Under the pieces are notes generated by a model. It was not told the DNA's origin, did not search any database, and saw only the letters and a program-made list of their open reading frames with translations. A program made the position numbers and the translations under genes. This document shows positions 1 to 1,508 of a stretch of DNA of 64,000 nucleotides, one piece after another. The stretch is from an uncultured delta proteobacterium. Its GTDB lineage: Bacteria > Myxococcota_A > Polyangia > Polyangiales > B10-G4. The stretch lies in NCBI GenBank assembly GCA_963727445.1, contig CAVSGI010000021.1, positions 672,001 to 736,000 of the forward strand. The letters run 5' to 3'. Positions within the stretch are counted from its first letter, which is position 1; every line of letters starts with the position of its first letter.

Positions 1-813
1 GGGGGGGACAAGTGCTCCCTCGGCGCGACCAGCGTCGCCGTGGCGCCGAGCGGCAACCTCTATCCCTGCGAGCGCGCGGTTGCGGAGGACGAGGACCTCA
101 CCTTCGTGATGGGCCACGTCGACACCGGGCCCTCCGTGAGCGGCGAAGCGTGCGCGCGCGGGCCGATCAATCCCGAGTGCGCGGACTGCGGCGAGCGCTG
201 GCGCTGCGCCTCCTTCTGTGCCTGCGCGAACTACGCGGAGACCGGTCGCACCGATGTCGCCGGCGGCACCCAGTGCTGGCACGAGCGCCAGACCGCTCTC
301 CTCGCCGACCGCATCGCCTCCACCCTCTGGGAGGAACAGAACGCGCTCTTCATCGCCTGGTTCTACGGCCGCATGACAGGCGCCGCCACAGAGGAGAAGG
401 CGGAGCGGGCCCGAAGCGGAGCGGCCGCGCAGGGCGCGAAGCGCCCGGAGTGGCCGCGCAGCGCCGGGCGCGCGGAGCCGGGAGTGCGCGCCACAGAGGA
501 GAAGGCGGAGCGGGCCCGAAGCGGAGCGGCCGCGCAGGGCGCGAAGCGCCCGGAGTGGCCGCGCAGCGCCGGGCGCGCGGAGCCGGGAGTGCGCGCCCCA
601 GAGGAGAAGGCGGAGCGGGCCCGAAGCGGAGCGGACACACAGGGCGCGAAGCGCCCGGAGTGGCCGCGCAGCGCCGGGCGCGCGGAGCCGGGAGTGCGCG
701 CCACAGAGGAGAAGGCGGAGCGGGCCCGAAGCGGAGCGGACGCGCAGGGCGCGCCCAACGTCGTCCCGCGCAAACCGAAATCCGAGCGCGTGCGTCTCAC
801 GGTGTTGAGCTGA
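1..813 (+). CDS. Radical SAM/SPASM-domain protein, C-terminal part (5' end lies outside the window)
   Basis: Frame 1 is open from base 1: KCSLG...GNLYPC...CADCGERWRCASFCACAN...QC, the SPASM Cys pattern. The tail is extended by a 35-aa tandem repeat. Confidence 0.85.
   Translation, partial: GGDKCSLGATSVAVAPSGNLYPCERAVAEDEDLTFVMGHVDTGPSVSGEACARGPINPECADCGERWRCASFCACANYAETGRTDVAGGTQCWHERQTALLADRIASTLWEEQNALFIAWFYGRMTGAATEEKAERARSGAAAQGAKRPEWPRSAGRAEPGVRATEEKAERARSGAAAQGAKRPEWPRSAGRAEPGVRAPEEKAERARSGADTQGAKRPEWPRSAGRAEPGVRATEEKAERARSGADAQGAPNVVPRKPKSERVRLTVLS
385..753. repeat. 105-bp tandem repeat, about 3.5 copies, palindromic (REP-like), in frame within the CDS
   Basis: Units start at 385, 490, 595 and 700. 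Each full unit has the hairpin GGGCGC-GAA-GCGCCC (432-446) flanked by GCGGCCGC/GTGGCCGC. Confidence 0.95.
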
Positions 814-1508
814 TGGCTGCAGGTAAGAAGAAGCCGGTTCGCTGGACGATCCCCGACGTGAAGCAAGCGCCGCCGCGCGCGCTGGTGGCGGGCGAAGAGG
901 CCCCCGCCTCGCGGCGCTACCCGAGCGCCGCCGAGATGATGGCGCGCGGCCCGGAGACGCAGGCGTGGCTGAAGCACGCGCTCCGCTCCATCGTTCAGCC
1001 GGCGGCCGTCGCCTCCGCCCTCGCCCTCGGCGTCACCGGTTGCTCCGACGTCGGGGAGATCCTCTCCCAGGGGACCGGCGCGCCGCCGCCGGTCTTCGGC
1101 GTGCCGGACGCCACCGACAAGCCGGCGTCACTCACACCCATCGGGGCGCCCTCTTCGCCGCAGGTCGCCCAGAACGGGGGAGGGGTCGTGATGACGCCCC
1201 TGCCGAACAAGCCCGATCCCACCGTGGTTCCTCCTTGTCCGCTCCCCCCGCTGGGTGAGCACGCCATGGCTGGGGAGCCGCCGGCGGTGACCCCGACTCC
1301 GCCACCGATCCCGCCCGCGCATCCGCCGACTGTGCGTGGACGCATCCGTCCCATTCGGCCCGCCGTTCCGACCCCACCTCCGACCCCGCCGCCAGTACCG
1401 GCGGTGGACCCACCCACACTCGACGGCGACGTGGCGATGGTGCATCCGGAGCCGCCCCCGATGCCGGGAGGGGTGAGCGTCGTGACCCCCGAAGCGGGAG
1501 GGGAGTAG
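813..1508 (+). CDS. Pro-rich putative lipoprotein with repeated hydrophobic-x-Gly motifs; candidate radical SAM substrate
   Basis: ATG at 813 overlaps the upstream stop (TGATG). Lipobox-like ALALGVTG-C. Motifs MAGEP, VRGRI, LDGDV, MPGGV lie between poly-Pro linkers. Confidence 0.7.
   Translation: MAAGKKKPVRWTIPDVKQAPPRALVAGEEAPASRRYPSAAEMMARGPETQAWLKHALRSIVQPAAVASALALGVTGCSDVGEILSQGTGAPPPVFGVPDATDKPASLTPIGAPSSPQVAQNGGGVVMTPLPNKPDPTVVPPCPLPPLGEHAMAGEPPAVTPTPPPIPPAHPPTVRGRIRPIRPAVPTPPPTPPPVPAVDPPTLDGDVAMVHPEPPPMPGGVSVVTPEAGGE

Follow-up and report, generated by a model that had tools for sequence, protein, structure and literature searches.

A radical SAM/SPASM enzyme family, mostly of Myxococcota, and its leader-bearing, proline-rich partner proteins: a candidate system for modification of glycine-centred cores before export

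A stretch of 64,000 nucleotides (the window) from an uncultured delta proteobacterium (assembly GCA_963727445.1, contig CAVSGI010000021.1, positions 672,001 to 736,000) opens with the 3′ part of a gene for a radical S-adenosylmethionine (SAM) enzyme with a SPASM domain (1 to 813, + strand), immediately followed by the gene of an exported proline-rich (lipo)protein of 231 amino acids, the partner (813 to 1508, + strand). A first-pass annotation, made from the letters alone, had proposed that this pair forms a lipoprotein-modification system resembling those for peptides that are made on the ribosome and modified after translation (RiPPs). Comparison with homologues shows that enzyme and partner are genuinely paired, and that this holds far beyond the window. 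It is fairly probable that the N-terminal region of the partner acts as a leader recruiting the enzyme, which would modify the peptide backbone at each of several glycine-centred cores before export. The initial interpretation is thereby supported in part: the linkage, the leader role and the Gly cores argue for it, whereas the presence of like cores on a second scaffold, without the enzyme, argues against it.

As judged from its sequence, the enzyme is a member of a radical SAM/SPASM family that lacks an RRE (RiPP recognition element) and matches no named family. The Radical_SAM domain with its CX3CX2C motif is present (PF04055, 61.4 bits for a cut-off of 29.5). The SPASM domain, encoded at 13 to 276 (+), displays a seven-cysteine motif plus an extra cysteine (CX2CX5CX3CXC; TIGR04085, 27.8 bits for a cut-off of 27). 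After removal of duplicates, 151 full-length enzymes were collected, 133 of which have a complete CX2CX5CX3C motif and 145 the extra Cys (CXC). With the ligand numbering of anSME, the eight conserved SPASM cysteines would fill both auxiliary clusters, so that no open site would be left for a substrate thiol. None of four enzymes tested reached a specific NCBIfam cut-off, the best model being PapB (160-226 bits against 340). All modelling of the enzyme was done on an intact orthologue (locus L004) of the same genus. Its AlphaFold2 (AF2) model (predicted local distance difference test, pLDDT, 89.6) is closest to CteB and anSME, with template modelling (TM) scores of 0.72-0.76 and 20-23% identity. 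An N-terminal RRE is lacking in 147 of the 149 enzymes inspected, where a start codon lies at most 25 residues before CX3CX2C, and the AF2 model begins at strand 1. Orthologues occur in 16 of 61 related genomes, and the enzyme was matched in at least 50 of 401 genomes of the phylum. Named genomes contributed 65 loci, almost all of them with Myxococcota or deltaproteobacterial titles and a few with Vulcanimicrobiota ones; from metagenomes, which gave at least 551 matches, the best 80 were taken. A quick 149-row tree places the window subfamily inside a 59-row clade (SH-like approximate likelihood ratio test support 99) that also contains fused forms of the enzyme. Enzymes of the myxobacterial clade end, after a disordered tail, with a basic motif, R-x-L-[PTR]-V-[LV] (window 781-810), missing in most distant members. 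Two further long forms outside the main fused clade (P0003, P0042) have a Gly core late in the chain, besides a hydrophobic stretch and a small domain rich in beta structure.

The partner gene is present in a single copy in the genome and its product corresponds to no Pfam or NCBIfam family. The protein contains 53 Pro. As initially remarked, a long basic N-region of about 60 residues, including RRYP (912-923), precedes the lipobox; residues 1-60 include 11 Lys/Arg and only 5 Asp/Glu. This leader, or extended n-region (813 to 1001, +), has a basic start and carries Tyr36-Pro37 (918-923), both invariant in 8 of 8 close partners. It is followed by a hydrophobic region and a lipobox V-T-G-C (1002 to 1043, +; Cys77 at 1041-1043), so that, by sequence inspection alone, the features of a bacterial lipoprotein (h-region, lipobox Cys) are present. 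The idea that poly-Pro makes up all that separates the cores after the lipobox was too simple, the roughly 70 residues between the lipobox and core 1 being not only poly-Pro. In the close clade, a homologue of the partner exists in 8 of 8 genomes, adjoining the enzyme in seven and in trans in one. The TGATG stop/start overlap (811 to 815, +; stop 811-813, start 813-815), rightly noted in the first-pass annotation, may provide translational coupling; gaps of -3 to 0 nucleotides are common in orthologous enzyme-partner pairs.

More distant partners have differing middles on a common plan, namely a basic leader (often psi-[KR]-P-V...Y-P), a hydrophobic helix, and then cores (for example L-A-G-D-I, V-P-G-G-M, L-G-G-K-P or I-D-G-D-I) set among spacers that are acidic or rich in Pro. 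Tyr-Pro lies within the first 50 residues in 17 of 87 downstream open reading frames (ORFs), against 5.4 after shuffling. Among 40 exported partners, a set that contains two false hits and one wrongly matched ORF, Tyr-Pro or Phe-Pro is found in the N-region of 28, a lipobox in 26 and an RRxFL-like motif in 12. The lipid anchoring proposed for the window protein is not universal, since 14 of the 40 lack a lipobox and both soluble and fused partners occur. In one enzyme subfamily the neighbour is a soluble protein of about 140 residues without membrane helix, with an invariant Gly-Gly core and one tandem duplication (11 sequences). Soluble partners of this size (L093, L094, L107, L113, L115, L119, L120, L121, L155, L157, L097, L106) carry G-G-[IL]-R-x-P-H-L-H and are in no known family; the two His beside the core may bind a metal. 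Another candidate metal site, H-x-H-x-P-[GD]-E-x-C, is seen at partner C-termini in L043, L065, L111, L147, L174 and L178. A 451-residue partner (L191:58-1410, - strand) alternates I-x-G-D-I-type cores with repeated Cys-rich modules and, with some leaders, folded domains are located between cores. A search for further substrates in the window's genome by means of the leader gave a single hit. On distant loci, the leader profile recovered the close clade alone, because leaders diverge. For neither the window partner nor a soluble one did ESM Atlas yield a family that could be used, and weak partner hits in G056, G120, G201 and G244 proved to be unrelated proteins.

The four cores named in the first-pass annotation were located at 1260 to 1289 (HAMAGEPPAV, M-A-G-E-P), 1326 to 1355 (PTVRGRIRPI, V-R-G-R-I), 1413 to 1442 (PTLDGDVAMV, L-D-G-D-V) and 1455 to 1484 (PPMPGGVSVV, M-P-G-G-V), all on the + strand. 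Cores 2 to 4 are retained in the closest orthologue, and Gly176 of core 2 is invariant in 8 of 8 close partners. Core 1 and the additional VFGVP (1092-1106) are not retained there, and VFGVP was therefore rejected as a splice-like site. Taken alone, the window partner contains 4 matches to a narrow pattern, for 0.9 expected (p = 0.009), and 6 to a loose pattern, for 5.6 expected. Support inside this single protein is modest, and it is the homologues that provide strong support. The working pattern [MVLI]xG[EDRKG][PIVML] is a widening of the window cores set after the first homologues had been seen, so the first homologue sets (14 cores against 2.6 and 17 against 2.1) were not blind. In held-out loci, 78 automatically chosen upstream ORFs contain 53 cores against 22.8 expected, and 50 downstream ORFs contain 28 against 14.8, values reached by 0 of 500 shuffles in either case. 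Four new fusions contain 10 against 1.4 (0 of 2000 shuffles). Replacing the central Gly by Ala or Ser in the pattern gave no excess in held-out loci. Controls were flat, with 18 against 18.6 in long neighbours and 10 against 9.2 in Pro-rich ORFs of the window's genome; the latter control omitted the window partner and held many shadow frames, and the neighbour test described below was used instead. With a narrow pattern made only of the letters of the window cores, the held-out upstream ORFs gave a significant excess (26 against 11.4), and neither the downstream ones (8 against 7.0) nor the fusions did. Cross-validation of the core by expectation-maximization motif discovery was modest, at 19 against 6.1 (maximum 14) one way and 11 against 5.0 (maximum 12) the other. 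The family core may be written psi-x-G-[GDEKRA]-psi-x-x-[PV], with one to six copies per partner and Gly alone constant. A Cys is found within four residues in 3 of 96 cores, and an aromatic residue or His within three in 8. No Cys occurs in 15 of 56 mature regions and any Tyr-Gly in only 5 of the 56; the sole Tyr of the window partner being in its leader, the earlier remark that the cores have no Tyr-Gly is borne out.

The neighbour test was limited to 109 enzymes with at least 700 nucleotides on both sides, 42 enzymes lacking this room. A core-bearing neighbour or tail was scored for 48 of the 109, or 46 once L149 and L150 had been removed by eye, as compared with 0 of 20 other radical SAM-like ORFs and 7 of 400 random genes of the window's genome. 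A conserved linkage of enzyme and motif-bearing neighbour, as initially anticipated, was thus recovered, and homologous enzymes do not as a family lack such a neighbour. In genomes with an orphan enzyme, partners were found elsewhere in 4 of 5 cases (7, 5, 2 and 1 matches). Leader-type partners (E ≤ 1e-6) are present in 14 of 401 genomes and the enzyme in all 14, for a base rate of 50 of 401; 8 of the 14 were not profile seeds, and related genomes are not independent.

Recruitment by the leader was modelled with the L004 enzyme (residues 1-365), partner residues 1-72, three 4Fe-4S clusters and SAM. The complex scores 0.80, the best of three controls 0.00, with at least 78% contact agreement between runs and a partner pLDDT of at least 66. 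The score mark is reached by 116 of 157 solved pairs and by 2 of 215 mismatched ones, counts that are only roughly valid for these alignments and ligands. In the model, Tyr38 packs on residues 341, 342 and 345, the leader helix lies on residues 353-362, and partner residues 7-16 lie over the SAM-binding loops. The model therefore supports binding of the enzyme by the cytoplasmic N-region of the partner, with Tyr-Pro docked on C-terminal helices whose predicted window counterpart, W-x3-N-x2-F-I-x-W-x-Y, is encoded at 328 to 375 (+). Leader complexes of the related enzymes ChlB, SuiB and CteB have been solved, so part of this result may reflect likeness to them. In 15 proteins (11 of 150 listed protein representatives and four genome loci), the enzyme, an Arg cluster or Arg-rich membrane helix and one to six cores are fused in one frame. 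The Tyr-Pro leader is absent from all 15, and so is the lipobox. The docking residues W345, N349, F352 and Y357, largely kept in 24 stand-alone enzymes, are lost in 11 of 11 fusions. Sequence comparison here provides an independent check on the predicted site, and the leader function first suspected for the N-region gains from both the model and the loss of the leader in fusions. Fusions keep the SAM motifs. In the 11 that were aligned, C240, C295, C304 and C327 are lost, and C258, C298 (10 of 11), C308 and C310 are kept, a pattern that fits one auxiliary cluster. The AF2 model of one fusion has a disordered core region (pLDDT < 50) and is uninformative on core binding.

In the mechanism considered here, the enzyme held by the leader would thread each core before export and abstract a backbone hydrogen. 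The flanking hydrophobic residues would be register anchors rather than reactants, because they are variable (L/V/I/M/T and I/V/M/L/P). A constant Gly between variable anchors favours backbone over side-chain chemistry. Since cleavage at the lipobox, when present (26 of 40), would cut the leader from the cores, the enzyme would have to act before export; the RRxFL-like motifs of 12 partners would allow late export. After modification, the protein would be exported, the leader cut at the lipobox or signal site, and the product would be a membrane-tethered poly-Pro rod displaying several modified sites. As to the chemistry within this mechanism, the chance stands a little short of even that the auxiliary clusters oxidise a Gly C-alpha radical and so produce an N-acyl imine, which water or some other nucleophile would then trap or which would be cleaved. 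Epimerisation of a Gly-adjacent residue is a distinctly weaker candidate, a C-C bond on the aliphatic anchors is weaker still, and some other reaction is improbable.

The system would work like a binary splicease or an anSME-type system, being by its sequences a member of neither. The radical SAM/SPASM enzyme anSME (TIGR03942; 4K37; TM 0.72) is also RRE-less, and modifies an unfolded protein before export. It differs in that the window enzyme reaches only 84.6 bits for a cut-off of 349, the partner has no Cys/Ser-x-P-x-R target, the residue following Y-x-C is Asp in just 21 of 149 enzymes, and a sulfatase signature is found in 2 of 151 loci. The grouping with sulfatase maturases that, according to the first-pass annotation, would have told against its proposal is thus not seen. 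The nearest enzymes by sequence and fold are the thioether maturases PapB (NF047865), CteB (5WHY/5WGG) and QhpD (TIGR03906), with 184.5 bits, TM 0.76 and 22% identity. Their curated cut-offs are not reached (184.5 of 340, 106.7 of 425 and 120.6 of 453 bits, respectively). QhpD, too, acts on an exported protein. In contrast to these maturases, the present family lacks an RRE (147 of 149), rarely has a Cys near its cores (3 of 96) and carries an extra SPASM Cys; thioether chemistry was rejected because Cys donors in the core and matches above the curated cut-offs were not found. The radical SAM/lipoprotein model TIGR04133, taken as a mark of splicease enzymes, was not among the best 25 of 63 model matches, the 25th having 50.5 bits. 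Cyclophane chemistry of the triceptide/darobactin type was discarded, given aromatic residues or His in 8 of 96 cores and models at no more than 81 bits. The glycyl-radical activating enzyme of pyruvate formate-lyase (PFL-AE), a radical SAM enzyme, abstracts hydrogen from Gly in R-V-x-G at one site of a folded cytoplasmic enzyme. Many cores here read R/K-psi-x-G in a comparable manner, but PFL-AE belongs to another radical SAM branch. In borosins, which rely on methyltransferases, enzyme and repeated cores form one chain in some lineages and are split in others; unlike in the present fusions, no membrane helix stands between enzyme and core.

Two further radical SAM systems act on repeated sites. 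PMC11414181 describes the spliceases PlpXY and RhaX, which, as here, combine a radical SAM enzyme and a leader-bearing precursor with repeated Gly-containing backbone sites. In their binary systems the enzyme is bound by a helix of the leader, with no RRE apart from it (PMC11414181); here, leader binding is predicted by the complex model. Spliceases need X-Y-G in the precursor (PMC11414181), whereas the window partner has no Tyr outside its leader and Tyr-Gly is rare in mature regions; splicing chemistry was rejected accordingly. The cyclopropyl synthases TvgB/TigE are radical SAM/SPASM enzymes working on repeated motifs free of Cys and aromatic residues (TVGG; PMC9062424, PMC10878394), and are defined by GYW (PMC10878394). 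This motif occurs in 0 of 151 enzymes here, which disqualified cyclopropane chemistry, and the anchors are often Leu or Met with long poly-Pro spacers; TigE carries an RRE, unlike the present family. A literature search, covering few subscription journals, found no description of this enzyme-partner system. Of the 22 unexplored pathways of PMC9062424, none in the text examined matches it; the figures and supplement could. Gly alone being fixed in the core, the reaction of the family is probably new.

A second scaffold bears on the role of the cores. The window's genome also encodes, at C8:298130-298813 (L238:4130-4816), a protein in which a small Cys-rich domain is followed by an Arg cluster and a membrane helix, with similar Gly cores beyond. 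The domain pattern, PCxxxWxxM...RxCxxC...CxR...DC, has no match in Pfam, NCBIfam or PDB sequences. Homologues exist in 17 of 61 genomes, in up to 7 copies, mostly where the radical SAM enzyme was not found, and longer forms include carboxypeptidase-regulatory-like, OmpA or ankyrin domains. No conserved enzyme was seen among 59 ORFs neighbouring these genes. A lipobox is present in 5 of 27 proteins and would sever the Cys-rich domain from the cores, so that this domain too may act before export.

Modification of the cores by the enzyme has to be weighed against several observations that speak the other way. Of 27 Cys-domain proteins, 15 carry cores (22 against 3.8 shuffled), and 5 of 10 searched Cys-domain genomes (G009, G029, G039 and G043, 99-100% complete, and G037) gave no enzyme hit at E ≤ 1e-15, the other five giving hits of at most 123 bits as compared with about 250-470 for full-length members. 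The leader is thus tied to the enzyme, the cores not to the enzyme alone; like cores being present in such genomes, they may be periplasmic binding motifs. The strict neighbour test was failed by 61 of 109 enzymes, some of them with looser cores or trans partners. No partner was found in the orphan-enzyme genome G042 with the one profile tried, and in G049 (80% complete) three matches to the partner stand without any hit to the enzyme. The narrow pattern is weak in most sets (2 against 1.1 in fusions; 14 against 10.9 downstream without the close clade). In fusions, the membrane helix separates enzyme from cores and four SPASM Cys are lost. Leader-bearing lipoproteins without a clear core exist (L096, L125, L136, L137, L140), and, in this assembly, the enzyme gene of the window itself is disrupted. 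Of these lipoproteins, the upstream ORFs of L137 and L140, of 52-55 residues, end a few residues past the lipobox, whose L-x-G-C is itself core-like.

The main rival explanation takes the cores as unmodified periplasmic binding motifs, of the beta-strand-addition type. The partner would then serve to tether the enzyme to the membrane or to regulate it there, and the cytoplasmic module, be it the enzyme or the Cys-rich domain, would be interchangeable and act on something else. Such an arrangement would account for the layout common to fusions and Cys-domain proteins (cytoplasmic Cys-bearing module, Arg cluster, membrane helix, cores) and for the Cys-domain proteins that have neither the enzyme nor a conserved enzyme neighbour. 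It is nevertheless unlikely, since the lipobox carried by 26 of 40 partners and by 5 of 27 Cys-domain proteins would part one side from the other, since soluble partners keep the core, and since the relatives of the enzyme are peptide maturases. By analogy, this last point, the nearest models and structures being those of PapB, CteB and anSME, argues for core modification. Alternatively, the enzyme could modify the partner outside the cores, in the leader (Tyr36 or residues 7-16) or at the lipobox Cys, for instance by a thioether. Leader residues touch loops beside the SAM cluster in the complex model, the nearest enzymes form thioethers, and the coreless leader-bearing lipoproteins would fit as well. 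Against this, fusions have kept SAM motifs and cores while lacking leader and lipobox, the lipobox is missing in 14 of 40 partners, and with eight SPASM Cys conserved no iron site would remain open, which makes this an improbable explanation. Finally, adjacency could be fortuitous and the cores a compositional noise of Pro-rich proteins. Loose patterns are indeed little above chance (73 against 61.5 in stand-alone partners), but the neighbour test, complex model, co-occurrence, fusions, held-out enrichment, Gly specificity and flat controls largely refute this idea, which hardly deserves credence.

Concerning the window itself, the enzyme gene starts 707 nucleotides before position 1 (C21:671294). 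Two frameshifts, each a single extra base in a short run, divide its 5′ part, upstream of the window, among three frames; across the resulting pieces, identity to intact orthologues is 75-81%. Such a density, two in 1.1 kb, is above the background of the assembly, which is 5 in 82.7 kb of coding DNA (63 genes). Moreover, 3.5 copies of a 105-bp hairpin repeat lie in frame in the non-conserved tail (384 to 753, +) and are absent from orthologue tails. The window copy could thus be a recent pseudogene, a question that concerns this copy alone and leaves the system elsewhere as described. This is possible but on the whole doubtful: extra bases in short runs are a typical long-read error, the enzyme is as close to its orthologue as the neighbouring genes are (77-82%), two nearby genes also seem shifted (by eye, without homologue comparison), and the partner gene is intact. 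The repeat, overlooked in the first-pass annotation, resembles repetitive extragenic palindromes. It is dispersed over 18 loci of the genome, with as many as 8 units per array, and encodes 35-residue units in the enzyme tail. The two-gene unit probably ends at a strong hairpin followed by a short U-rich run (1524 to 1588, +; -48.6 kcal/mol, z -5.9, matched by 0 of 200 shuffles), which is absent from the terminator-scan listing. A sigma-70 promoter was sought for the locus and none was found.

Downstream, positions 1649-7305 carry genes for TonB, ExbB, two ExbD-like proteins and a TonB-dependent-receptor-like protein, the last of which seems to switch frame near 4780. At 7310-9413 (-) follow, by eye, a CheR-like methyltransferase, whose end is TPR-like, and a response regulator resembling CheB. 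Directly upstream of the enzyme (L001:9637-11155, -) lies a Cys-rich lipoprotein gene with a weak DUF7107 match and an apparent frame change near 10240. The TonB-ExbB-ExbD-ExbD-receptor cluster was rejected as part of the system (0 matches in 145 related loci); the upstream flavin oxidoreductase matched in 3 of these.

It is tempting, if speculative and rather unlikely, to imagine that exported bacterial proteins carry, in psi-x-G-x-psi, a modification tag of general use. The present enzyme family would then exert a new radical Gly chemistry on it, either in trans by way of the Tyr-Pro leader or, where enzyme, helix and cores are fused and a single auxiliary cluster is left, by modifying itself. 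Elsewhere the tag would be handled by the unrelated small Cys-rich domain, as a cis-maturase or as a leader for a second enzyme, in the manner of the anSME/FGE pair. The second scaffold raises a testable question on the role of the cores, and the natural occurrence of fused and split forms makes a one- or two-gene test easy. The characterised radical SAM/SPASM peptide maturases compared here use Cys, aromatic residues, Tyr-Gly or Val/Ile. Since it would accept varied side chains, the reaction of the present family could be put to use as a portable tag for proteins. As their sequences suggest, the substrates would be exported envelope proteins rather than small peptides, and the system would concern at least about one in eight of the genomes sampled in the phylum.

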